From positions 184 through 44,877 of the forward strand of contig MGAO01000032.1 of assembly GCA_001788215.1 (NCBI GenBank): 44,694 nucleotides of DNA, read 5' to 3'. Origin of the DNA: Candidatus Roizmanbacteria bacterium RIFCSPLOWO2_01_FULL_40_14. GTDB taxonomy: Bacteria > Patescibacteriota > Microgenomatia > GCA-001788215 > 2-01-FULL-40-14. Position 1 is the stretch's first letter, and every line of letters starts with the position of its first letter. Of the stretch, positions 7,965 through 38,110 are shown piece after piece. The position numbers and the translations under genes are program-made. The notes under the pieces were generated by a model. It searched no databases. It saw nothing but the letters and a program-made list of their open reading frames with translations, and was not told the DNA's origin.

Positions 7965-9041
7965 ATGAGAATCGGTATTGATACACGATTACAAAATGAA
8001 ACAGGAGTTGGTCGGTATATCCGGAATCTTATAACGTATCTTCCCCAACTGGATACGAAAAACGAATATGTTTTTATTAATCCGGATATAAAATGGCATA
8101 CCCTTGAAGAGCAAATTAAAATGCCAGCCGTATTAAATGCCTATAATCTTGATCTGGTGCACATCCCCTACTTTAATGTACCCGTTTTTTATACAAAACC
8201 ATTTGTCGTAACGATACATGACTTGATCGTCAATGAATATCGTACCGGACAGGCAAGTACACAAAATGTTCTTGTATACGGATTGAAACGGATCGGTTAT
8301 CAATACAGTATTAATCATGCCGTTCAAAAATCCTGCGCAATTATCGTTCCTTCTCACGCAACAAAAGATAAACTGATTGAATTGTACCCGCGTGTTCATC
8401 GAAATAAAATATGCGTGACCTATGAAGGAGTTGATCTAAAATCAGCAAACGGCAAACCCTCCGAATCGGAGGGCAAACAGCTAACAGCTAACAGCAGAAT
8501 TACAAACAATAAATTTTTCCTCTATGTCGGCAATGCGTATCCGCACAAAAACGTTGAGACATTGCTGAAAGCCTTTGCACAGCTCAATAATCCTGAGATA
8601 CAATTGGTGATCGTCGGGAAGAAGAACTATTTTACGGATCGATTAACACATAGTATTAAAGAACTGGATATTGCTGACAGAATAATTTTTCCCGGAGAGA
8701 TTCCCGATGCAGAATTGGCATGGCTCTATAAACATGCACAGGCATTAGTTCTTCCCTCTCTCATGGAAGGATTTGGACTGCCGGCTTTGGAGGCTATGCA
8801 GTTTCGCGCAAGTGTCATTGCCAGCGACATTCCCGTGTTTCATGAGATATGCCAGCAGTCGGCATTCTATTTTAATCCCTTCAATGTTGACCAGTTGACG
8901 GCGTTATTGAAGGATATTACCAGTTCTGCCAAAAAATCCGACATGCAAAAGAAAAAAGATTTTGGTGAAAAAAGAGCACGGGAATTCAGCTGGAAAAAAA
9001 TGGTAAATGAGACCATAAAAATATATAATACGTGCCTATGA
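7965..9041 (+). CDS. Family 4 (GT-B) glycosyltransferase
   Basis: MRIGIDTRLQNETGVGRYIRNL...FFLYVGNAYPHKNVETLL...PSLMEGFGLPALEAMQF. The inter-domain linker carries a repeat-derived insert (see 8457-8496). Confidence 0.9.
   Translation: MRIGIDTRLQNETGVGRYIRNLITYLPQLDTKNEYVFINPDIKWHTLEEQIKMPAVLNAYNLDLVHIPYFNVPVFYTKPFVVTIHDLIVNEYRTGQASTQNVLVYGLKRIGYQYSINHAVQKSCAIIVPSHATKDKLIELYPRVHRNKICVTYEGVDLKSANGKPSESEGKQLTANSRITNNKFFLYVGNAYPHKNVETLLKAFAQLNNPEIQLVIVGKKNYFTDRLTHSIKELDIADRIIFPGEIPDAELAWLYKHAQALVLPSLMEGFGLPALEAMQFRASVIASDIPVFHEICQQSAFYFNPFNVDQLTALLKDITSSAKKSDMQKKKDFGEKRAREFSWKKMVNETIKIYNTCL
8457..8496. repeat. GC-rich palindrome CCCTCCGA-A-TCGGAGGG followed by the heptamer tandem ACAGCTA x2.9, in frame inside a GT4 gene
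   Basis: Palindrome at 8457-8473 and ACAGCTAACAGCTAACAGCA at 8477-8496. Together they encode KPSESEGKQLTANS in the inter-domain linker. Confidence 0.8.
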
Positions 9042-9478
9042 AAGAACTTATATATGAACAAATAAAATTTGCCAGTACGGTAGAGGATGTTAGGCAGAGT
9101 GTAGTACGGCTACTCGGGAAATTACGATTGAAAGATGATGTTGAGAGAATTGGCTACGTTTCTGGAATAATCACCTCAGGGGGATCAATTGAGGAAAATA
9201 TTCAACGTCTTATTGCTCATACTGATAGGCTTAGAACTATTCATAATTTTCCAATATTTACACCTCCCGATGTATTTCCAGACGACGTGTTTGAAAGAAC
9301 GAATGCAATTAACCATCCTTCAGAGAAATGGATCGAATTTTGGCGAACAATTCTTGAAAGTGGTCATGTTACTGACATTTTTATGACTCCCCGTTGGCAA
9401 CTGTCAAGAGGAGCTACGGATGAACACGAAACAGCCCAACGGATCGGAATCACTATTCATTATGTCGAAGAAGAGTAA
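9038..9478 (+). CDS. Hypothetical protein, possibly DUF4406 / nucleoside 2-deoxyribosyltransferase-like fold
   Basis: GYVSGIITSGG...W...GHVTDIFMTPRWQLSRGATDEHETAQRIGITIHYV resembles the DUF4406 pattern. ATG 9038 gives an ATGA overlap with the upstream stop. Confidence 0.45.
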   Translation: MKELIYEQIKFASTVEDVRQSVVRLLGKLRLKDDVERIGYVSGIITSGGSIEENIQRLIAHTDRLRTIHNFPIFTPPDVFPDDVFERTNAINHPSEKWIEFWRTILESGHVTDIFMTPRWQLSRGATDEHETAQRIGITIHYVEEE

Positions 9479-26546: not shown

Positions 26547-26648
26547 AATGTTGTCAATGATTTGTTGACAAATCATATTGACAGTTGAGTTTAGTTGTAT
26601 TATGGTAGTCAAATCCTGCTGAATTGTCAAGCGGGAAATGACGAAACT

Positions 26649-28433
26649 ATGTGTGGCATATTCGGATATATCGGAAAGAAAGAAAATGCGGCAGAGATTA
26701 TTCTTGAAGGATTGAAAAGGCTGGAATATCGCGGGTATGATAGCTGGGGAGTAGCCGTTGTACCAACGGAAGATCCAAATAAAAACAATAAAATCGTTGT
26801 AAAAAAACGAATAGGTAAAATCGGTGATGCAAACGTTGACGAATTACCCACAGCAACAATAGGGTTCGGCCATACGAGGTGGGCTACCCACGGAGGCGTC
26901 ACTCAGAAAAATGCGCATCCTCACCTAGATTGTACAAAAACCATTGCCCTTATTCATAACGGCATTATTGAAAACTACGACTCCTTAAAAAAAGATCTGG
27001 TCAGCACATCTCATCGTTTTATATCAGAAACAGACAGTGAAGTCGCCGTTCATTTAATCGAAGAATACCTCAAAAAAGAAGCGTTTGAGAAATCGGTACA
27101 AAAAGCATTTCTTGAATTTCACGGATTAAATGCGCTTATTGCCCTGCATGCGAGAGAGAAAAAACTGATTGCCGTCAGAAATGGTTCACCTCTTGTGGTT
27201 GGATTCGGAAACGGTGAGAACTATATCGCCAGCGATGCGGCGGCGCTTCTTCCCCATACGAAAGACGTTTATTTTCTTGAAGACAACGATATGGTTGTTG
27301 TTTCAGATACCGATGTTGAACTCTATAACGTGGTTACGGGAAAGAAGAAACGAATTACAAAACAAAAACTGGCGTGGGACGTTTCTTCTTCAGAGTTGGG
27401 TGCCTATCCCCACTTTATGCTCAAAGAAATACATGAGCAGCCGGGATTAATTGTCGACATTTCGATCAGTGGAATTTCTTCAGCTAAAAAGCTTGCAGGC
27501 ATTATCAAAAAAGCATACGGCACGTATTTTGTCGGATGCGGTACAGCGGCGTATGCCTGCATTGCGGCATCGTACTTGTTTTCAAAAATTGCGAAACATC
27601 ACATCAATTGGGCAGTCGGGAGTGAGTTTTCCTATCATCTTGATTTTTTGACCAATAAAAGTCTCGTGGTTGCGCTTTCACAATCAGGTGAAACCATGGA
27701 CATTTTAGAAAGTATAAAGGCCGCAAAACAAAGGGGTGCTCGTATTGCCTCTCTGGTTAATGTTCTCGGATCTACGTTATACCGTGAATCAGATTATCCA
27801 TTTCTTATTGGTGCCGGTCCGGAAAAGGGTGTTGCCTCAACAAAAGCGTTTATCGCGAAACTAAGTCATCTCATTCTCACCGCATACGCACTCAAGGGTG
27901 CTGTATCAAAAGGCTCATTGCTTCTCAAAAAAACGAGTAAGGCGGGCAAACAAATTGTCACCAATGAATATGTTTTAAAATTAAAAAAACTTGTCCAAAG
28001 GATAAAAAATGCTTCTGATATATATGTTATCGGTCGGGGTATTTCATATCCAGCAAGTCTTGAAGCGGCTCTGAAAATAAAAGAAATTTCATATATTCAT
28101 GCTGAAGGACTCGCAGCCGGTGAATTAAAACATGGACCGCTTGCACTTGTTGAAAAGGGAACACCGTGTATTGTATATGCTCCTCTGGATGAAACGTTTG
28201 GTGCAAATTTAGCCGGTGCTATGGAAATGAGAGCGCGCGGCGGGTATATCATTGGCATCTCACCGAAACCGCATGAAGTATTTGATTATTATTTGCCGAT
28301 TGAAGATGTCGGGGAGGCAAGTATCATTCCGGGTGTTATGGTTGCACAGCTTTTGGCGTATTATCTAACCATTGAAAAAGGATATGATCCGGATAAACCG
28401 CGCAATTTGGCAAAAAGTGTGACGGTAAAGTAA
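26649..28433 (+). CDS. glmS: Glutamine--fructose-6-phosphate aminotransferase (isomerising)
   Basis: The protein must start MCGIFGYIGK (Cys2 nucleophile). Two SIS domains follow, and the C-terminus is LAKSVTVK. Confidence 0.95.
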   Translation: MCGIFGYIGKKENAAEIILEGLKRLEYRGYDSWGVAVVPTEDPNKNNKIVVKKRIGKIGDANVDELPTATIGFGHTRWATHGGVTQKNAHPHLDCTKTIALIHNGIIENYDSLKKDLVSTSHRFISETDSEVAVHLIEEYLKKEAFEKSVQKAFLEFHGLNALIALHAREKKLIAVRNGSPLVVGFGNGENYIASDAAALLPHTKDVYFLEDNDMVVVSDTDVELYNVVTGKKKRITKQKLAWDVSSSELGAYPHFMLKEIHEQPGLIVDISISGISSAKKLAGIIKKAYGTYFVGCGTAAYACIAASYLFSKIAKHHINWAVGSEFSYHLDFLTNKSLVVALSQSGETMDILESIKAAKQRGARIASLVNVLGSTLYRESDYPFLIGAGPEKGVASTKAFIAKLSHLILTAYALKGAVSKGSLLLKKTSKAGKQIVTNEYVLKLKKLVQRIKNASDIYVIGRGISYPASLEAALKIKEISYIHAEGLAAGELKHGPLALVEKGTPCIVYAPLDETFGANLAGAMEMRARGGYIIGISPKPHEVFDYYLPIEDVGEASIIPGVMVAQLLAYYLTIEKGYDPDKPRNLAKSVTVK

Positions 28434-30892: not shown

Positions 30893-32359
30893 ATGGGACC
30901 ATACGTTTTTTTCATATATACCATTCGGACGATCCGAAACACACTCTACCACATCGGGTGGTGGGAGACAAAGGAATATCGTTTTGACCGGATGAAAGTA
31001 CATCTGTTTGAGACCGTTCAGGGGAGACGGTGGATGTTTGGACCGTTGTCTCTATTCAAATGGTTTCTTATCCTTCTCTATTCATTCCATTTTCCTGAGA
31101 TGCTCAATAGTGTCGTATTTGCTTTGTACACATTTGAAGCCGTAAAAAATTTGTTCGAATTCATATACGATAAGCGTCCCAGTGGTCTTCGCCCAAAAGT
31201 TATTGTTCTCGTTTTGGGATCATTATTATTCGAACTCTTACTTGTCCTTCTTCTCTCATTTGATTATCCGCTCGGTTTGGCGTTTCTTATCGGAGATAAG
31301 CTTCTGTCGTTTGCCATTGTTATGCAAGTTATTGTCCTGAATTCATTCTTTACGTATTACAAACGGGATAAAATGATGGCCGCACGGGAAAAGTTTGCCG
31401 AGTCAAGGATTACCGTTATCGGCGTAACCGGCAGCTATGGGAAGACGACGACAAAGGAATTTATATATAAAATTCTCAAATCCAAATATAAAGTATTTAA
31501 AACAGAAAAATCTCAAAACAGCGATATCGGCATTGCAGAAGTGATTCTCAGAACCGACCTTTTAAACTATGATTATTTTGTGTGCGAGATGGCAGCCTAT
31601 CACCGAGAAGAAATTAAGTCGAGTACCTCTATCATTGCTGGCCATATCAAGACAGCGGTTATCACGGGTATCAATGAACAGCATCAGAGTTTGTTCGGAA
31701 GCCTTGACACGACAAAAAAATCCAAATATGAATTGGTGAAATCACTGTCTGAAAAGGGGTCAGTTATTATTAATTCCGAAAGTGCTGGATCAAAAGAGAT
31801 GGGCGATTGGGCCAAAAAAGATGGACATACCGTAACGTATGTTCGGAAGAAAGATTTCTTAAAATCTTTCCCGAAAGGTACGGCTCCTCATTTTAAAATG
31901 AATGCTACGCTAGCCGCTCATGCCGCAGAGTCAATCGGGATGAAGAAGATAGATATTGAAAAAGCAGTCGCTTCTTTAGAACTCCCTGAAAAGACGATGC
32001 AAGAAGAGAAGAAGGGGAAAGTCACGTTCATTAATGACACGTTCAATGCAAACCCGGATGCCGTCTATGCGGCGCTTGATTATATAAAAAGGAAAAAGGG
32101 TACGAAAGTGCTGGTCCTCCAGCCGCTGATTGAATTAGGAAACTATGCGGATGCCGTTCATGAGAAAATCGGGCAAATGGCAGCTGATATATGCGACCAC
32201 ATCATTTTAACGAATATAAACTGGAATAAGGCTTTCTTACGTGGTGTTGACCAATCAAAGAAAAAGGAAATAAAAGTTCAAATTGCCGGATATCTTCCTA
32301 AAATTGAATCGGGCGTCATATTATTTGAAGGCAAAGAGGCAGAAAAGTATATTAAATAA
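30893..32359 (+). CDS. murF: MurF-type Mur ligase with an N-terminal ~165-aa multi-TM domain
   Basis: GVTGSYGKTTTKEFI P-loop at about residue 180. NDTFNANPDAV and a C-terminal Mur ligase domain are present. The N-terminus has about 4 hydrophobic helices in place of the usual soluble domain 1. Confidence 0.8.
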   Translation: MGPYVFFIYTIRTIRNTLYHIGWWETKEYRFDRMKVHLFETVQGRRWMFGPLSLFKWFLILLYSFHFPEMLNSVVFALYTFEAVKNLFEFIYDKRPSGLRPKVIVLVLGSLLFELLLVLLLSFDYPLGLAFLIGDKLLSFAIVMQVIVLNSFFTYYKRDKMMAAREKFAESRITVIGVTGSYGKTTTKEFIYKILKSKYKVFKTEKSQNSDIGIAEVILRTDLLNYDYFVCEMAAYHREEIKSSTSIIAGHIKTAVITGINEQHQSLFGSLDTTKKSKYELVKSLSEKGSVIINSESAGSKEMGDWAKKDGHTVTYVRKKDFLKSFPKGTAPHFKMNATLAAHAAESIGMKKIDIEKAVASLELPEKTMQEEKKGKVTFINDTFNANPDAVYAALDYIKRKKGTKVLVLQPLIELGNYADAVHEKIGQMAADICDHIILTNINWNKAFLRGVDQSKKKEIKVQIAGYLPKIESGVILFEGKEAEKYIK

Positions 32360-32451
32360 ATGAAACTGTACGTCAAAGCAAAACCTAAGAGTAAAAAGGA
32401 ACACGTTACTCAAATTTACGAGACTCATTTCATAATTGCCTTCCACGCTTG

Positions 32452-32491
32452 CCCTTCCGTAGTCCTCACGTTACGTGGGGACGAAGGAGGG
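32452..32491. repeat. Hairpin repeat GTCCTCACGT-T-ACGTGGGGAC with flanking CCCTTC/GAAGG-GGG arms
   Basis: 10-bp stem with one mismatch (G-T if RNA) at 32462-32482, extended by the outer arms. It lies inside the DUF167 reading frame. Confidence 0.75.
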
Positions 32492-32516
32492 AGCCGTCCG
32501 AAGAAGGAATGTACCT

Positions 32517-32543
32517 GTCATTCCGGCCGGGAGAGCCGGAATC
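32517..32543. repeat. GTCATTCCGGC-CGGGAGA-GCCGGAATC palindromic repeat (same family as 19976-20020)
   Basis: Perfect ATTCCGGC/GCCGGAAT arms. It translates as VIPAGRAGI-like peptide in one frame. Confidence 0.8.
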
Positions 32544-32657
32544 CATATAATTACTTACCTTTTCAAGTATAACGCAAATTCCTCGCCAAATTTCTAGATA
32601 TTCCAAAATCTTCTCTTGCATTAATTTCCGGCGCAAAATCGACAGAGAAGGTGCTTG

Positions 32658-32666
32658 TGATATAAT
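32658..32666 (+). promoter_or_regulatory. Extended -10 element TGATATAAT, 6 nt upstream of ATG 32673 (leaderless start candidate)
   Basis: Perfect TGnTATAAT at 32658-32666, overlapping the stop of the DUF167 remnant. Confidence 0.45.
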
Positions 32667-32672
32667 GCACTT

Positions 32673-32891
32673 ATGACAAGTATAGACAATGCAAATAGAT
32701 TTAATGAAGCTATAAGCAAAGCGGTAAACAATATATATGGCGATGGTGTTCGACCAGAAAACACTGAATTTGCAGGATGGAACCCGATTTATACAGGTGC
32801 GTTGACTGTATTGGCCGAGACAGGGGAGCTTTCGGCCGCAGATGTCGCGCGTGTTGACCCACAAGTTACCGTTTTTAAACGGTCTTCCTAA
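32673..32891 (+). CDS. Hypothetical 72-aa protein
   Basis: The ORF sits with its own extended -10 at leaderless spacing. No recognisable family. The antisense 132-aa ORF (32466-32864) runs through the repeats and is judged spurious. Confidence 0.4.
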   Translation: MTSIDNANRFNEAISKAVNNIYGDGVRPENTEFAGWNPIYTGALTVLAETGELSAADVARVDPQVTVFKRSS

Positions 32892-33005
32892 ACTCCATCA
32901 CTTTTTCATAAAAATTCAGAGCAATAGTGTTTGTTATAGGAATAATATTGTTCACTCAACCAAACTCTAGCTTATCGAGTCTCAAGAGAGTAGAATATAG
33001 ACGCA

Positions 33006-33365
33006 ATGATTAAGCCATCATCTACACTTCAATCCCTTACTCGAAAAATTATTAAGTTCCGAGATGATCGGGATTGGAAACAATTTCATAATCCGAAAGA
33101 TGTTGCACTTTCTCTCATGCTCGAAGCAGGAGAAGTTGCGGAACATTTCCAATGGAAAAGTAATGAAGAGATTGAAAAATATATCAAATCCCACCGCGCG
33201 GAAATCGGCGAAGAACTAGCAGATGTTTTCTACTGGGTATTATTACTCTCCCATGACCTTAATATCGATATCACAAAAGCACTCGATAAAAAGATGGAAA
33301 AGAATAAAAAGAAATATCCGGCTAAGAAGGCAAAAGGAAGGAATGTGAAGTATAATAGACTTTAA
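33006..33365 (+). CDS. MazG-like all-alpha nucleotide pyrophosphohydrolase (YpjD/DCTPP1-like small form)
   Basis: KFRDDRDWKQFHNPKDVALSLMLEAGEVAEHFQW...IGEELADVFYWVLLLSHDLNIDI...KMEKNKKKYP is the signature of the MazG-like family. Confidence 0.85.
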   Translation: MIKPSSTLQSLTRKIIKFRDDRDWKQFHNPKDVALSLMLEAGEVAEHFQWKSNEEIEKYIKSHRAEIGEELADVFYWVLLLSHDLNIDITKALDKKMEKNKKKYPAKKAKGRNVKYNRL

Positions 33366-33368
33366 TAT

Positions 33369-34508
33369 ATGAAAAACGTATTTCTTCTTTATATTCCACC
33401 AACAAATCATGAGGCGGTGGTGCATTATGAAGATACAATAAAGAGCAAAATAGATCCCCAGAGAATCTATCAGTATGTGAACCACGATCTTCGAAATAAA
33501 CTCGAGAGAATTTTCCTCGGAAGGAGAATTGCAGTGTGGGGTTCACGTGATTCCGATGTAAACAGATCACGGTTTGAAAAAATGAAAGATGGAGATGACA
33601 TTCTCATCATTGAAGGAGATACAATTAAACTGTTGGGGAAAATAGCTGCCAAAACAATTAATCAAGATTTATCACGCGAGTTATGGAAGAACATTAAAGG
33701 TGCTACAACCGAAGGATGGGATCTTATTTACTTTATCGCCAACCCGCAAGAAGTCAATCTCCCATTTAGCGAGTTTAATAACTTATTTGGATATGAAGCA
33801 GACTATACACTAAGAGGATTTACTAACATCGCTGAGGACAGACTTGCCTCATTTTATGAGCAGTATGATGATCTATACGACGTCCTCATAAGAATCAAAA
33901 ATGGCGATGAGGTGATTCGAAAAGATGCCGGACGAATATCGGATCGGATGGTTGAATATGAAACGGTAGTACCAGAAGAGAACAAAGAAGAGATTAAAGA
34001 GGAAGTTTCTGAGCATTTAAAGATTCAGTGGAAATTAATACAACTAGGTTTAAAAGCGAGTACGCGTGTATGGATTCCACGGAATGATCAATCAAAGATA
34101 ACTGGACAATACCATTATGACGAATTTGAAAAAGAATTTACTGCTGGGCTAGATACGGATGCACGTTATGTTGAGAATATTGATGTAGTATGGAAGGATG
34201 AATTTCGAATCGACGCTGCCTTTGAAGTAGAAAACTCGACTTCGATATACTCTGGACTACTACGATTTTCTGATTTGAAAATTGTTGCACCGAACAGTAA
34301 TTATCCTTTATTTATTGTTGCACCACTTTCTAGAAAAGCAAAAGTGATAAATCAAGTAAAACGACCGACATTTCGTAAGCTCGATTTTCATAAGAAGGTG
34401 AGATATCTTTCATATGAAGCAGTTGAAGAGACGGAACGGTTCTTTGAAGATTCTACAAGCGGTCTAAATGTTGAATTATTAACCGGAAGATCAGAAGAAA
34501 TCAACTAA
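33369..34508 (+). CDS. Putative nuclease with an N-terminal PUA/EVE-like domain and a C-terminal PD-(D/E)xK-like restriction-endonuclease fold
   Basis: The N-terminal IAVWGSRDSDVNRSRFEKMKDGDDILII resembles the EVE signature WxGVRNxxARNxxxxMKxGD. The C-terminal HLKIQWKLIQLGL...IDVVW(D272)...AAFEVEN(E286,E288)STSIYSGLLRFSDL...LFIVAP resembles a PD-(D/E)xK core. It starts 3 nt after the mazG-like stop. The ORF is solid, but the function is inferred by eye. Confidence 0.55.
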   Translation: MKNVFLLYIPPTNHEAVVHYEDTIKSKIDPQRIYQYVNHDLRNKLERIFLGRRIAVWGSRDSDVNRSRFEKMKDGDDILIIEGDTIKLLGKIAAKTINQDLSRELWKNIKGATTEGWDLIYFIANPQEVNLPFSEFNNLFGYEADYTLRGFTNIAEDRLASFYEQYDDLYDVLIRIKNGDEVIRKDAGRISDRMVEYETVVPEENKEEIKEEVSEHLKIQWKLIQLGLKASTRVWIPRNDQSKITGQYHYDEFEKEFTAGLDTDARYVENIDVVWKDEFRIDAAFEVENSTSIYSGLLRFSDLKIVAPNSNYPLFIVAPLSRKAKVINQVKRPTFRKLDFHKKVRYLSYEAVEETERFFEDSTSGLNVELLTGRSEEIN

Positions 34509-34525
34509 TAGTGTATTTACCCTAG

Positions 34526-34534
34526 TGATATACT
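34526..34534 (+). promoter_or_regulatory. Extended -10-like element TGATATACT, 11 nt upstream of ATG 34546
   Basis: TGnTATACT. The same TGATATACTA string recurs at 36278, and GATATACTA recurs at 12344, in each case just upstream of a gene start. Confidence 0.35.
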
Positions 34535-34545
34535 ATAGGTAGCAA

Positions 34546-35160
34546 ATGGCAATAGTATTTTCTCTTATTTTCCTGCTCACTTTAGTTCTTCTTCCCGTTG
34601 GACTTATTTGGCCCTCGATATTTCAGAAAATAATTCCAGGACCATCGCATAAAAAAGTTGGAGGTATATTGGCAAGTCTTCTTATATTTGCATTCATATT
34701 TGTTGGTGTGACAAGAAATGATGAAGAACGAGTGTCTGTTACCACCGATTCACCTCAGGTTACCAACGAAATGCCGACAGAAGAGCCTAACCAAAAAGTG
34801 GTTGAACAAGAAATGGTACAATCGGAATCTTCTCAGCAAAACGAATTTGCAAGTGAAGGAGTTGAAGAAGACACACCGACCCCTGAACCAACAAATACTC
34901 CAATTCCAACCATGACTCCAACCCCGACTACCCATATTCAAAAAACACCGACGTTTACACCACTTTCCACAAACACACCAACACCATATATTATTCAGTC
35001 TCAAACGATCAACACGGGTGGGTCATATACCTGCAGTTGTAGTAAAACATGTGAGGAGATCTCTTCTTGTCAGGAAGCGTACTATCAATTAAACACGTGC
35101 GGATGTGGTAGGCGTGACGGTGACAACGACGGCGTGCCGTGTGAAAATTTGTGTGAGTAA
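34546..35160 (+). CDS. Membrane-anchored protein with a Pro/Thr-rich linker and a C-terminal Excalibur calcium-binding domain
   Basis: Two N-terminal TM helices, the TPTPEPTNTPIPTMTPTPT... linker, and a C-terminus of CSCSKTCEEISSCQEAYYQLNTCGCGRRDGDNDGVPCENLCE (DxDxDGxxCE). Confidence 0.75.
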   Translation: MAIVFSLIFLLTLVLLPVGLIWPSIFQKIIPGPSHKKVGGILASLLIFAFIFVGVTRNDEERVSVTTDSPQVTNEMPTEEPNQKVVEQEMVQSESSQQNEFASEGVEEDTPTPEPTNTPIPTMTPTPTTHIQKTPTFTPLSTNTPTPYIIQSQTINTGGSYTCSCSKTCEEISSCQEAYYQLNTCGCGRRDGDNDGVPCENLCE

Positions 35161-35173
35161 AATATTAAACAAG

Positions 35174-35809
35174 TTAGATTAGTTTACTGTCTTCTGGTAC
35201 TTTGCCTACATATTTCGCTTGAATAACAAAATTTTTACTAATCTTGGGCTGTATGGTAGGGTCGTCAGTTTCAGGTATTAATAATATGAATTCGTTAATT
35301 TTTTTGTATCTTTTCAAAGTTGTACAGTCATCTTCTGGATCATATGCAACAACAATATCATTGTTATTGGCAACTTGAGAAGGAACAACAACAATTTTAT
35401 CTCCAGGAAAAATGCCTGCAAGCTTCATACTATGTCCACTAACCTCTAATATAAATGCATTTCTTTTACCTCGTAATAGGGATAATGGGAGAAATTTAGA
35501 ACCTGTTATATTGTAGTCGGCAAATGTGTTATATCCAGCTTCAATTTGACCAACGATAGGCACTTTAATATACTCTTCGTCTTCAGCTTCTGGCCTAAAA
35601 AGAATTTTTATAGCTCTATTTTTGTATCTTTCTCTTTTAATAAAACCTTGTTTAGACAACCTGTTCAACTGAAGCTGTATGCTATGAGTTGACTTCGTAT
35701 TCATTAATAATTTGAGCTCCCCTATAGTAGGACAAAAGCCGTTATCCTTCTGATATTTATATATGTAGTTAAGTAACTTTCTAGTATTATCAGATAGTTT
35801 GCTCGTCAT
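35174..35809 (-). CDS. lexA: LexA-type repressor (wHTH + S24 self-cleaving peptidase)
   Basis: N-terminal LexA DNA-binding wHTH. Ala91-Gly92 cleavage site in VGQIEAGYN, Ser127 in VSGHSM and Lys166 in TLKRYKK. Confidence 0.85.
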   Translation of the reverse strand: MTSKLSDNTRKLLNYIYKYQKDNGFCPTIGELKLLMNTKSTHSIQLQLNRLSKQGFIKRERYKNRAIKILFRPEAEDEEYIKVPIVGQIEAGYNTFADYNITGSKFLPLSLLRGKRNAFILEVSGHSMKLAGIFPGDKIVVVPSQVANNNDIVVAYDPEDDCTTLKRYKKINEFILLIPETDDPTIQPKISKNFVIQAKYVGKVPEDSKLI

Positions 35810-35814
35810 GTTTT

Positions 35815-35830
35815 TGGTATAAATGTACCA
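35815..35830. promoter_or_regulatory. Candidate LexA operator TGGTA-N6-TACCA
   Basis: TGGTATAAATGTACCA is a 5-bp perfect inverted repeat containing GTAC. It lies between the lexA -10 and the lexA ATG, directly abutting the -35 of the divergent promoter. Confidence 0.4.
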
Positions 35831-35831
35831 C

Positions 35832-35860
35832 TTGAAATATTACCTCACTTTTGGTAAAGT
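35832..35860 (+). promoter_or_regulatory. Candidate promoter of the DUF3467 gene, TTGAAA-17 nt-TAAAGT
   Basis: TTGAAA at 35832-35837 and TAAAGT at 35855-35860. It overlaps the lexA promoter face to face. Confidence 0.4.
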
Positions 35861-35865
35861 GTCAA
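35837..35865 (-). promoter_or_regulatory. Candidate lexA promoter TTGACA-17 nt-TAATAT (minus strand)
   Basis: The reverse complement of 35860-35865 is TTGACA, and that of 35837-35842 is TAATAT. The spacer is 17 nt. Confidence 0.5.
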
Positions 35866-35915
35866 ATAGAATTTGCCCCATCTTTAATGATGGGCTTTTT
35901 GTAGAGGAGGTGAAT

Positions 35916-36194
35916 ATGATGAATAAAGCAAAGGAACAACCAAATCAGCAGTTTCAAGTAAATGTAAATCTTGACACCACACCTATTCTTTATACCGATA
36001 GCATTAATATGAATACTAACCCGGACGGAATTGTTTTAGATATTATGCAGCGATTGGGGCCAACAAATCAGGTACGAATTGTTTCTAGAATTGGTATGAG
36101 TCGGGAACATGCCAAGAAATTTGTAGAAAAACTAAGCAAGTTACTCGCATTAACAGAAGGACAAGTTCAGACAGGTAAAAAATCATTTAACTAA
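35916..36194 (+). CDS. DUF3467-like small protein
   Basis: A GGAGG Shine-Dalgarno sequence lies 5 nt upstream of ATG 35916. LYTDSINMNTNPDGIVLDIMQRLGPTNQVRIVSRIGMSREHAKKFVEKL fits the DUF3467 pattern (...EFvlDF...v.sRi.m.p.HAKrl...L). Confidence 0.55.
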   Translation: MMNKAKEQPNQQFQVNVNLDTTPILYTDSINMNTNPDGIVLDIMQRLGPTNQVRIVSRIGMSREHAKKFVEKLSKLLALTEGQVQTGKKSFN

Positions 36195-36244
36195 GATTCA
36201 GCAGGGAAGAAATTCTTTACCACCGATGTCTTTTTAGGGGACAA

Positions 36245-36273
36245 TTGAAATTGATCATCCCAACTTCTATTAT
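36245..36273 (+). promoter_or_regulatory. Candidate promoter TTGAAA-17 nt-TATTAT (an alternative is TGATATACT at 36278-36286)
   Basis: Hexamers at 36245-36250 and 36268-36273, upstream of ATG 36299. Confidence 0.4.
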
Positions 36274-36298
36274 CCTCTGATATACTAGTCTAATTCAT

Positions 36299-37516
36299 AT
36301 GCGAAGTATTCAAACGCTTACGCTTGTTTTTTTATTGGGTATTGTCGGATTTTTGTTTCCGTTCTTTTCTGAACGGGTAATGGCGCAAACACCAACAGAA
36401 ATTGTGGTGTTTTTGCGCGAAGGCTGTACCCACTGTGAAGCTGAAGAAGCGTATCTCGATGAATTGGTCGAAACTCGAGAAGATATCACAGTCACGAAAT
36501 ACCGTTTGGAAAATGAGGAAGAGCGGAAAATCTGGGTGGACTTTACTGACCGGCTTCAGATATCAAAAGTAACACCAATTACCGTCATCGGTACTGCGTA
36601 TATCATAGGTTTTGACACCGAAGAGACTACCGGAAAAGAAATTCTGAAACTCGTCGAAAAAGCAAAACAGAATAACATTGTCACCGATGTCAGTTCTCCT
36701 GAAATTCAGTCAGCAGAGAGTATCAGCGCGACATGCCCGGAAGACGGAAGTATCCCATGCGCGATTCCAGAAGAATCATACGTATCTGTTCCTCTGATTG
36801 GAAAAATAGATACACAAAAATACCCGCTTATTATTCTGTCCGCCCTGCTCGGGTTTTTTGACGGGTTTAACCCGTGTGCCATGTGGGTACTGGTTACCTT
36901 TCTTATCATTCTTCTTCAGGTGGGAGACAGAAAAAAAATGCTTCTTTTTGCCGGGACATTTGTCCTGGCAGAGGCGATCATGTACTTTCTTATCCTGACG
37001 GTGTGGTACAAAACATGGGACTTTGTGCAGCTGGATGAAATTGTAACGCCCATTGTCGGATTGGTAGCTATCGGAGGAGGGCTGTTTTTCCTGTGGGAAT
37101 GGCGTAAAAAAGAACTTGAATGTAAAATAACTGATCTTAATCAGCACAAAAAAACGCGTGACCGGATAAAAGAACTGGCTATGAGTAAGTTTACATTCCT
37201 GACGTTTATCGGTATTCTTGCGATTGCGTTTTCGGTAAACATTATCGAATTTGCCTGTTCTATCGGTATTCCTCAGGCATTTACCAAAATCCTTGAACTC
37301 AACCGGTTGCCACTTGGCCCGTCTCTCGGGCTTATCGGCATCTACATACTGTTTTATATGATCGATGACTTTATCGTATTCGGGATTGCTTTGTACGGAG
37401 CGGATAAATTAGCCTTAACTACAAAATACAGTAAACTTTCAAACTTAATCGGTGGAATTGTCATGATCCTGTTAGGACTTCTTCTGATATTTCACCCCTC
37501 GTTTTTGTATTTTTAA
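36299..37516 (+). CDS. Thioredoxin/glutaredoxin-like domain fused to a CcdA/DsbD-type thiol-disulfide transporter membrane domain
   Basis: Signal/anchor sequence, then VVFLREGCTHCEAEEAYL (CxxC). The membrane domain has GFFDGFNPCAMWVL and EFACSIGIPQ conserved Cys helices. Confidence 0.75.
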   Translation: MRSIQTLTLVFLLGIVGFLFPFFSERVMAQTPTEIVVFLREGCTHCEAEEAYLDELVETREDITVTKYRLENEEERKIWVDFTDRLQISKVTPITVIGTAYIIGFDTEETTGKEILKLVEKAKQNNIVTDVSSPEIQSAESISATCPEDGSIPCAIPEESYVSVPLIGKIDTQKYPLIILSALLGFFDGFNPCAMWVLVTFLIILLQVGDRKKMLLFAGTFVLAEAIMYFLILTVWYKTWDFVQLDEIVTPIVGLVAIGGGLFFLWEWRKKELECKITDLNQHKKTRDRIKELAMSKFTFLTFIGILAIAFSVNIIEFACSIGIPQAFTKILELNRLPLGPSLGLIGIYILFYMIDDFIVFGIALYGADKLALTTKYSKLSNLIGGIVMILLGLLLIFHPSFLYF

Positions 37517-37531
37517 CGGCAATGTTGAGAA

Positions 37532-38110
37532 TCACTCCAAATACCTCTTTAAGAAAATTATGTAGTGTTGGTAGTTAGCATAGATCCAATAAGCATTGAG
37601 CAATATGAGTCCCGGAAACACGAGGGATTTTTCGATGATGCCGCCGGTTTTTATACGCATAAATTCAAATGGGGGAAACCCAAATCGTATAGGAATCGGG
37701 AAGAGCCACGGTACGCCCTGTTTCGTAAGTGAGTCGGTTACTAAATGCGAGAAATAACCAATCATGAGGGCCCACCAGATAATGTTCATATTGACCAGAA
37801 CGATGGATCCCAACCAATTCAGAAACCATTCAGAAAGGAAGCCGATGATTACCATTCCTACAATAGAATGAGAAAGCATACGATGTTGTCCGACGAGTGG
37901 CTTAATGAGTTTTCCTAATAATGATCCGCCGCGGACCTTATCCCAAATATCACTTGTCGCATCGTCAATATCCGGGAGCAATCCGCCGATCATGTTTGCG
38001 CCGACTGCCGCGGCAAGGGTGGCAAACGATATGTCAGGAGGAGCCGTCTCTGTAATAAACACTAAATTCAGTGCCGTGAATGCAGCCAGGTCATGTGTCC
38101 TTCCGGTCAT
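37532..38110 (-). CDS. YdjM-family (DUF457) membrane-bound metal-dependent hydrolase
   Basis: MTGRTHDL...GGLLPDIDD...HRMLSHSIVG...HLVTDSLTKQGVPWLFP motifs. Confidence 0.8.
   Translation of the reverse strand: MTGRTHDLAAFTALNLVFITETAPPDISFATLAAAVGANMIGGLLPDIDDATSDIWDKVRGGSLLGKLIKPLVGQHRMLSHSIVGMVIIGFLSEWFLNWLGSIVLVNMNIIWWALMIGYFSHLVTDSLTKQGVPWLFPIPIRFGFPPFEFMRIKTGGIIEKSLVFPGLILLNAYWIYANYQHYIIFLKRYLE

Follow-up and report, generated by a model that had tools for sequence, protein, structure and literature searches.

A DCTPP1-like pyrophosphatase gene joined to a predicted modification-dependent endonuclease gene in a Roizmanbacteria genome: one variant of a possible MazG-first cassette

Why should a gene for a MazG-like nucleoside triphosphate (NTP) pyrophosphatase lie 3 nucleotides (nt) ahead of a gene for a putative nuclease, in the midst of peptidoglycan genes, and could the two products act together? 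The question is raised by a stretch of 44,694 nt (hereafter the window) from Candidatus Roizmanbacteria bacterium RIFCSPLOWO2_01_FULL_40_14, a member of the Patescibacteriota (assembly GCA_001788215.1, contig MGAO01000032.1, positions 184 to 44,877 of the forward strand). A first-pass annotation, made from the letters alone, had proposed a two-gene defence module directed at modified cytosine, with one protein working on the nucleotide pool and the other on the DNA. Both open reading frames (ORFs) are exactly where that annotation placed them, with a junction of TAA-tat-ATG and thus a 3-nt gap. The parts of the pair, with lengths in amino acids (aa) and model confidence as the predicted local distance difference test score (pLDDT), are:

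33006-33365, + strand: gene 1 (MazG-like), a 119-aa ORF
33369-34508, + strand: gene 2 (nuclease), a 379-aa ORF
33369..33899, + strand: YTH-like reader of the TgMcrB N-terminal-domain type, gene 2 residues 1-177
33927..33998, + strand: interdomain linker, residues 187-210, acidic, poorly conserved, pLDDT below 50
33999..34508, + strand: NmeDI_C-type nuclease domain, residues 211-379 plus the stop codon
34182-34184, 34224-34226 and 34230-34232, + strand: putative active site, D272, E286 and E288 respectively

The pairing is real but not exclusive, since the genes that most often follow MazG code for DUF2075/Nhi-like helicases. By its sequence relationships gene 1 is a DCTPP1-family MazG-like all-alpha NTP pyrophosphatase, and gene 2 is predicted to encode an uncharacterised, NTP-independent modification-dependent endonuclease (type IV or IIM-like) of an architecture that has already been catalogued.

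What does the N-terminal half of gene 2 read? The segment that had been likened to the EVE signature is present (W57-G-S-R-D...N65-R...M72-K-D-G-D76...ILII), and in an AlphaFold model built from 29 homologues residues 1-177 reach a pLDDT of about 80-90. Searched against the PDB with Foldseek, the gene 2 model has a single match below 1e-3, the N-terminal domain of T. gammatolerans McrB (TgMcrB; 6p0g_A, E 1.6e-6, TMt 0.72, probability 1.00); next come VcaM4I (EVE-HNH), the YTH domains of Mmi1 and YTHDC1, THYN1 with 5-methylcytosine (5mC) DNA, 2eve, and the 5-hydroxymethylcytosine (5hmC)-specific PD-T4-3, the EVE structures matching the reader more weakly at E 0.008-0.02. Pfam EVE (PF01878) does not match gene 2 at E <= 0.1, so the reader is not EVE in the strict sense; the earlier call stands as to a PUA-superfamily reader fold and falls as to EVE proper. 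The domain is a TgMcrB-type YTH-like domain of the PUA superfamily.

The sequence relatives of the reader agree with the fold. An exhaustive phmmer search with residues 1-185 returned 852 cluster representatives of many lengths. Among 62 longer relatives, 10 carry a McrB-type AAA_5 domain, 10 HNH_2 and 9 HNH, with further fusions to NucS_C, NOV_C, PDDEXK_2, and TIR or STAND modules, and only one of these distant relatives matches EVE. A profile of the 62 matches 6p0f/6p0g by sequence at E 2.3e-7 and full-length TgMcrB (6ut5) at E 1.6e-6. W57, G58 and W106 are invariant across these diverged proteins and W117 nearly so; W57 and W106 align in sequence with tryptophans of TgMcrB and are candidate residues of an aromatic cage for a flipped modified base. 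The TgMcrB domain binds DNA containing N6-methyladenine (m6A) better than unmodified or 5mC DNA, has little affinity for RNA, and holds an adenine as the flipped base in 6P0G (PMC7544203). It shares a WG...GD...W...W pattern with the gene 2 reader; it differs in serving an AAA+ motor driven by GTP and a nuclease, McrC, that is separate, whereas the gene 2 reader is fused directly to its nuclease. Mobile elements carry the reader too, to judge from two further matches: the N-terminus of an "AAA family ATPase" in an Archaeoglobus profundus provirus (BK065154.1:3712-4116; 27% identity, E 1e-9), and PHROG 14240, of unknown function (E 1.6e-17).

Beyond the disordered linker, which is a variable, gapped block in the alignment of the 29 homologues, the C-terminal motif noted earlier is also present (H216..Q220, I271-D272-VVW, F285-E286-V-E288-N, LFIVAP), with glutamate where the usual lysine would stand; the resulting D...ExE arrangement is as in BamHI. 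PF27126 (NmeDI_C) is precomputed on a protein identical to gene 2 and on every listed homologue, and the PADLOC model REase_II PDLC03534 aligns with residues 192-355 over positions 153-323 of its 351 (E 4.4e-15). Modelled alone, the domain has a pLDDT of 84.8, a predicted template modelling score (pTM) of 0.82, and the order helix, strand, (helix), strand, strand, helix, strand, with D272 just before strand 273-277 and E286 and E288 at the end of strand 280-287. Taken as the second and third core strands, these agree with a restriction-endonuclease core. PDB sequence searches with the 379-aa protein and with a C-domain profile gave nothing useful. Foldseek with the C-domain alone found no significant match, the best being EcoT38I at E 0.11, followed by Mus81, FAAP24/XPF, BsaWI and BamHI mixed with small GTPases. 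Since there is no significant structural match, a PD-(D/E)xK fold is treated as likely rather than demonstrated: the part of the earlier claim that rests on profile matches, topology and motif stands, and structural recognition did not come.

Conservation is consistent with this placement of the active site. In 29 full-length homologues 14 residues of gene 2 are invariant: W57, G58, S59, N65, R66, M72 and D76 in the reader, and H216, Q220, I271, D272, W275, E286 and E288 in the nuclease domain. Most of the residues singled out are invariant also in 47 distant relatives that have only the C-terminal domain in common (35-46% identity over residues 219-350), and the motif H...Q...W...ID..W...AAFE-x-E-(N/H)...T...SG..R is kept throughout them. 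The domain is always C-terminal in these proteins, and the N-terminus is EVE in 17, YTH in 1, DCD in 1 and Mrr_N in 1; these comparisons are strong, if indirect, support for the assignment. A search of a large protein database with the C-domain alone brought up, for the most part, truncated members of this family and added little. At one locus (L003:6001-7146 and 8169-9452) two NmeDI_C-domain genes of 381 and 427 aa, with differing N-terminal regions, lie about 1 kb apart, and may be tandem modification-dependent nucleases of different specificity.

Gene 2 thus joins a reader and a nuclease in one chain, with no NTPase, and each of the two domains is met elsewhere in type IV settings. Its genomic company was surveyed in 30 distinct full-length loci with 116 flanking genes. 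No DNA methyltransferase occurs among the neighbours in the window; DNA methylases are only 2 of the 116 flanking genes, and the plasmid homologues inspected are solitary. The neighbourhoods are rich in defence families (HNH_2, HEPN_Swt1, ResIII, BrxL, AAA_15). A reader and a nuclease without NTPase or methyltransferase, solitary plasmid relatives and defence-rich surroundings are together the signature of a modification-dependent endonuclease. Bell, Wolf & Koonin (2020; PMC7641849) list two sorts of fusion as predicted type IV enzymes: EVE-PD(D/E)XK, and PD(D/E)XK with YTH-like domains that the TgMcrB domain served to find. The enzymes assayed by Lutz et al. (2019; PMC6765204) were mostly PUA-HNH, with YenY4I the one PUA-PD-(D/E)XK enzyme. 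Like these predicted fusions and like VcaM4I, TspA15I and YenY4I, gene 2 puts a PUA-superfamily reader ahead of a nuclease, without NTPase or methyltransferase; unlike the three named enzymes, its family of about 380-aa proteins has so far remained uncharacterised, and its nuclease is of the NmeDI_C type, as against HNH in VcaM4I and TspA15I and DUF3883/NOV_C in YenY4I. Neither paper mentions a pyrophosphatase partner.

The nuclease family numbers at least 1,475 proteins at E <= 0.001, and its members keep about 60% identity across Parcubacteria, Nitrospirota, Gammaproteobacteria, Verrucomicrobiota, Planctomycetota and others, which points to horizontal spread under strong constraint. At five loci (L012, L018, L023, L027, L028) the nuclease gene overlaps, or begins no more than 35 nt downstream of, very large genes on the same strand (707-1189 aa, paired in L018 and L028); BrxL, ResIII and DUF499 among the neighbours suggest that the nuclease there rides at the end of BREX- or DISARM-like operons.

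Is gene 1 a working enzyme, and of what kind? The motifs EAGEVAEHFQW, EELADVFYWVLLL and KKYP are present as reported, and Pfam MazG-like (PF12643) matches at 61.6 bits (cut-off 27; E 8.6e-17). Its best PDB relatives by phmmer are mouse DCTPP1/RS21-C6 (E 6.6e-22) and human DCTPP1 (E 1.5e-18), and B. subtilis YpjD reaches only 6e-3 in the same search; of the earlier "DCTPP1/YpjD-type" label, the first half (E 7e-22) is therefore kept and the second set aside. PHROG 3301, "pyrophosphatase", matches at 9e-18. The DCTPP1 pocket, with residue roles taken from PMC13291643, was mapped onto gene 1 through a HMMER alignment and a 17-sequence alignment that included mouse DCTPP1. In gene 1, W24/W50 stand for the tryptophan sandwich W47/W73, H28 for the cytosine N3 filter H51, and F18, F27 and Y104 for F41, F50 and Y129. 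The acidic residues E63, E66, E95 and D98, which we take, in part from the same source, to be the metal ligands, are E40, E43, E70 and D73 in gene 1. Across the 17 sequences there is no variation at F18, W24, F27, E40, E43, W50, E70 or D73, very little at H28, and Y104 is kept in most. Gene 1 is apparently, judging from these residues, an active enzyme with a cytosine-type pocket, and its substrate would be deoxycytidine triphosphate (dCTP) or C5-modified dCTP, hydrolysed to the monophosphate. Like mammalian DCTPP1/RS21-C6 it keeps the sandwich, His51, the Glu/Asp ligands and Tyr129; unlike it, gene 1 has isoleucine in place of His38, and is a bacterial gene that stands first in mobile nuclease or helicase cassettes. 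PADLOC 2.0 gives gene 1 only a weak LmuA match (E 0.0011), and none for a close relative (in L086).

How often do the two meet? Seen from the nuclease, a MazG-like gene is the immediate neighbour at 5 of the 30 loci, in three arrangements: upstream in a Parcubacteria metagenome-assembled genome (MAG), where the genes overlap and the relative is 72% identical over the tblastn segment and 64% over the full alignment (L007), and in a Steroidobacterales MAG (L021); directly downstream in two Nitrospirota MAGs (L011, L013); and on the opposite strand in a Verrucomicrobiae MAG (L032). MazG-like and HNH_2 tie as the commonest Pfam families among the 116 flanking genes, and random gene placement, under simple assumptions, would give five such adjacencies with a probability of 1e-8 to 4e-7. 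In the Verrucomicrobiae locus the nuclease homologue (L032:6001-7115) is split over several frames, an apparent pseudogene. At the Parcubacteria locus (L004/L007:4930-9017) RadC, MazG, the nuclease and an AIPR (abortive-infection) protein follow one another, flanked by NYN-domain genes, in what looks like a compact defence-like island.

Seen from the MazG gene, through the 80 closest relatives (62-75% identical, mostly from Patescibacteria), a relative of the nuclease or of the reader lies downstream at only three loci: reader plus NmeDI_C (L137), reader plus a NOV_C/PD-T4-1-like domain (L158), and a 25%-identical relative with no domain match (L119). A same-strand gene follows MazG in 71 of the 75 loci with room for one, within 15 nt in 53 of those, and the junction has two modes, a 3-nt gap and a 4-nt overlap; the 3-nt gap of the window is the modal gap. 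Among 67 downstream partners scanned, 43 are SLFN-group-3/DUF2075 helicases; a LexA-type Peptidase_S24 domain is present in 18 of the 67 and GIY-YIG in 5; other partners include DpnI, Eco57I/MmeI/type ISP (type IIG) enzymes, RadC and Fic. PADLOC's Nhi and AbiO models recognise the helicases that were checked, at E 1e-10 to 1e-17; such nuclease-helicases (DUF2075, SLFN group 3) are thus the usual occupants of the second slot, and the window has none. Their consensus N-terminus bears an RID...IELK motif like that of PD-(D/E)xK nucleases, and in L086 (4348-6363; compare L098:4343-6385) the S24 domain is C-terminal; the presence of this self-cleaving domain in a defence helicase hints that RecA or single-stranded DNA switches the protein on. 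Partners of 365-370 aa in L091, L122 and L132 were tried as members of the window's nuclease family and not counted (profile-profile probability 0.2); their motifs (WTWG...GD; D...FEVKS) look like EVE plus PD-(D/E)xK.

Upstream of MazG the picture is one of disorder, with 54 families among 65 genes. Since the upstream genes are unrelated, MazG and its partner behave as a mobile two-gene cassette, and the idea that MazG is a core gene beside an insertion hotspot was rejected because of that count. Nor is there a conserved third component: the small ORFs upstream of MazG are mutually unrelated, and the 72-aa ORF that precedes it in the window has no relative in the fetched loci. The adjacency recurs, in one sixth of nuclease loci, and is far from general, with helicases as the commoner companions of MazG. 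As the first-pass annotation had suspected, the pair falls outside the named systems: PADLOC 2.0 has no model covering both genes and none for MazG, and the nuclease matches the generic REase_II only. In the library searched, no paper connects MazG with DUF2075 or the other cassette partners, and the only one with both MazG and "type IV restriction" is an HNH-nuclease classification.

Domain identities, residue conservation, operon-like spacing and recurrent association are the observed ground for the reading that we favour, and to which we give about half of our belief: that the modification-dependent endonuclease and the DCTPP1-like pyrophosphatase are made from an operon, cooperate, and are one variant of a mobile MazG-first cassette. 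Both genes would be a single operon in an inserted accessory segment. The reader would turn a modified base out of the double helix and lodge it in a pocket lined by W57, W106 and W117, and the flexible acidic linker would tether the NmeDI_C domain (D272, E286, E288), which could then place its cut some way from the base that is read, in the manner of R.NmeDI (12/7 nt from the site). Gene 1 would hydrolyse dCTP or C5-modified dCTP to the monophosphate and so bar modified cytosine nucleotides from replicating DNA: a phage building modified DNA would be denied them, and nucleotides salvaged from degraded foreign DNA would be kept from marking the host chromosome, while the partner nuclease would destroy the invading DNA itself. 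The second gene of such cassettes would usually be a DUF2075/Nhi-like nuclease-helicase and sometimes another modification-dependent or a type IIG enzyme.

Several observations weigh against this reading. The activities, the base specificity and the coupling of the two functions are throughout things that we infer from sequence and models. A MazG neighbour is missing at 25 of the 30 nuclease loci and 77 of the 80 MazG genes have another partner, so that neither gene needs the other. The fold alone does not fix the base that this reader family reads, and the best-characterised homologue of the reader prefers m6A; a shared target base is doubtful, because the MazG pocket is of the cytosine type. 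That preference, together with m6A-dependent DpnI as another partner of MazG, weakens the proposed two-level attack on modified cytosine, which is not established (PMC7544203). His38 of DCTPP1, a selectivity filter, is replaced by I15 in gene 1, at a position variable within the family; the nuclease domain lacks the canonical lysine, and its fold went unrecognised by Foldseek. An identity of about 60% across phyla is unusually high for a defence gene, and the description of the surroundings as an accessory island is supported by one distant comparison, given below.

A wider version of the favoured reading is that such cassettes form an undescribed, horizontally mobile family of two-gene defence systems, with an invariant DCTPP1-like first gene and an interchangeable DNA-targeting effector, the pyrophosphatase being needed for the function or the safety of the effector. 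The effectors would be Nhi-like DUF2075 proteins (often with S24 or GIY-YIG), TgMcrB-YTH-type nucleases, DpnI, and type IIG/ISP enzymes. We hold this version tentatively, as plausible but short of probable. Known nucleotide-pool defence systems (dCTP deaminase, dGTPase) are single genes that deplete canonical deoxynucleoside triphosphates (dNTPs). Like them, gene 1 is a predicted host dNTP-pool enzyme in a defence-like context; unlike them, the DCTPP1-like enzyme is translationally coupled to a predicted DNA-cleaving partner. DefensePredictor lists host MazG as a predicted, unvalidated defence domain (PMC13092281).

Another possibility, which we think unlikely, is that gene 1 serves self-protection alone: MazG would purely sanitise salvaged modified dNTPs, so that the cell's own nuclease spares the host, with no direct effect on phage. 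Mammalian DCTPP1 prevents the incorporation of 5-methyl-dCTP (PMC13291643), and the pocket residues are kept in gene 1. The closest MazG relatives are mostly from Patescibacteria, which are generally thought to depend on nucleotide salvage. The layout too, a small gene upstream in translational coupling with a nuclease that could harm its own cell, is like immunity or antitoxin arrangements. Most nuclease homologues, however, manage without a MazG neighbour, and the commonest MazG partners (DUF2075/Nhi-like helicases, type IIG enzymes) are not known to target modified DNA and so would bring no risk of self-marking; the reader, moreover, may recognise m6A and not a cytosine derivative.

Could there be no functional link at all, a house-cleaning pyrophosphatase and a solitary type IV nuclease having come together by chance in an island? 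Defence and mobile genes cluster in islands anyway, and the many loci at which each gene lacks the other, 25 of 30 and 77 of 80, are what chance company would produce. The adjacency, however, recurs in Parcubacteria, Nitrospirota, Steroidobacterales and Verrucomicrobiae with differing gene orders and a chance probability of 4e-7 or less; MazG cassettes have this same 3-nt spacing as their modal junction; three more MazG loci (L137, L158, L119) have distant reader-type partners directly downstream; and the upstream genes are not conserved, as they would be around a core gene at a hotspot. We regard chance company as quite improbable.

We give still less credence to the idea that MazG is a promiscuous regulator or antitoxin-like switch, which senses or removes an infection-dependent nucleotide, so that the pair would be a module like abortive infection or toxin-antitoxin and not a combination of pool sanitation and restriction. 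The small 5' gene stays constant while effectors of many unrelated types follow it, with a 3-nt gap or a 4-nt overlap; this resembles the pattern of hyper-promiscuous antitoxin domains, and the LexA-like, self-cleaving S24 domain in 18 of 67 partners would suit triggered activation. Against this, the invariant catalytic and cytosine-pocket residues point to ordinary dCTPase chemistry, no signalling-nucleotide synthase is nearby, and toxicity of the effectors is an assumption only.

R.NmeDI itself, a type II enzyme of 351 aa, cleaves on both sides of RCCGGY at 12/7 nt, and its gene overlaps that of an m5C methyltransferase (PMC2095814). Gene 2 shares its C-terminal domain family (PF27126), whereas the N-terminal halves are unrelated; gene 2 has neither an adjacent methyltransferase nor homology to R.NmeDI over its full length, recognition half included. 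The unrelated N-terminal half and the absence of a methyltransferase imply that target recognition differs from that of R.NmeDI. That gene 2 is an orphan sequence-specific type II enzyme, or an RNA nuclease that reads m6A RNA through its YTH-like domain, is very improbable: PGAP labels relatives on plasmids "type II restriction endonuclease", m6A in RNA is what YTH domains of eukaryotes recognise, and CoCoNuT YTH-like domains have been proposed to target RNA (PMC10542128), but the NmeDI-type model covers the C-terminal half only, a cognate methyltransferase is not present, the TgMcrB domain prefers DNA to RNA (PMC7544203), and NmeDI is a DNA endonuclease (PMC2095814).

The favoured reading places the operon in inserted DNA, for which two further features of the window matter:

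32360..37900, strand not assigned: accessory DNA of about 5.5 kb between a Mur ligase gene and a 486-aa ORF, boundaries approximate, containing a DUF167-like remnant, the 72-aa ORF, the MazG-nuclease pair, an Excalibur-domain protein, lexA, a DUF3467 gene, a 405-aa membrane protein and a 192-aa ORF
32639..32666, + strand: promoter-like site, TCGACA, 16 nt, TG-TATAAT, 11/12 matches, from a consensus scan only

Upstream of the island lie PBP2/FtsI, MurA, GlmS and the Mur ligase, and downstream a FemAB-like gene and MurD. The closest relative retrieved, and the sole useful one (L168), is distant and was found through its GlmS (57% identical); there the order is abhydrolase, Mur ligase, about 165 nt, a homologue of the window's 486-aa ORF, and FemAB. 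Since it has only those 165 nt at this point, the 5.5 kb are extra in the window, and the comparison supports the earlier description of an accessory island interrupting a peptidoglycan cluster, with peptidoglycan genes on both sides. The G+C content dips slightly (0.35-0.38 in the island against about 0.40-0.42 elsewhere); no flanking repeats and no tRNA genes marking the ends were found. A prophage origin was considered and is unsupported: the PHROG matches in the island (the pyrophosphatase, the reader domain, and a few others of unknown or generic annotation) include no structural or integrase genes, nor do tRNA genes or repeats speak for it. An Rfam scan of 31500-36500 gave no match.

The promoter-like site is a candidate promoter for a transcript of the 72-aa ORF, MazG and the nuclease, and no terminator-like sites were found on the + strand in 32300-35870. 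Its extended -10 element ends 7 nt before the ATG of the 72-aa ORF (window 32639-32891), which may therefore be leaderless; this ORF has no family match. Just before it, a frame at 32360-32668 is DUF167/YggU-like by motif only (N-terminus MKLYVKAKPKSKKEH..., C-terminus ...RKFLAKFLDIPKSSLALISGAKSTEKVLVI), broken by an insert of about 40 codons with a hairpin (ATTCCGGC...GCCGGAAT) and by an in-frame TAA at 32570-32572; it is probably a pseudogene or the carrier of a small inserted element.

The gene that follows the nuclease after 37 nt (34546-35160) specifies a protein anchored in the membrane, which has a Thr/Pro-rich linker and ends in an Excalibur calcium-binding domain (E 7.5e-5). Next is lexA (35174-35809, - strand; TIGR00498 E 4e-37), divergent from the DUF3467 gene (35823-36194, + strand), whose real start probably lies beyond the one called, since Pfam aligns only from residue 35 on. 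A lexA gene inside the inserted segment is curious given the S24 domains on MazG partners elsewhere; any connection is speculation. Outside the island, the GlmS ORF (26595-28433) is called from a TTG at 26595, and its family profile begins at residue 19-20, which puts the real start probably near 26649.

What would the pair mean for these bacteria and for the two families? The nuclease would add an abundant, uncharacterised family to the modification-dependent restriction enzymes, and its combination of a reader homologous to an m6A-preferring archaeal domain with a cleavage domain of fixed distance would be attractive for the mapping of DNA modifications. The more interesting result is a bacterial DCTPP1 homologue as the constant first gene with swappable DNA-targeting partners, an association that rests on solid comparative evidence from sequence. 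If the coupling is functional, bacteria would combine DNA cleavage with measures that clean or starve the nucleotide pool, the DCTPP1 family would gain a prokaryotic context, and MazG, hitherto only predicted, would be validated as a component of defence. If the reading as a cassette family is true, surveillance of the nucleotide pool would be linked to the degradation of DNA, in cassettes concentrated in the Patescibacteria, whose defence systems are poorly known.

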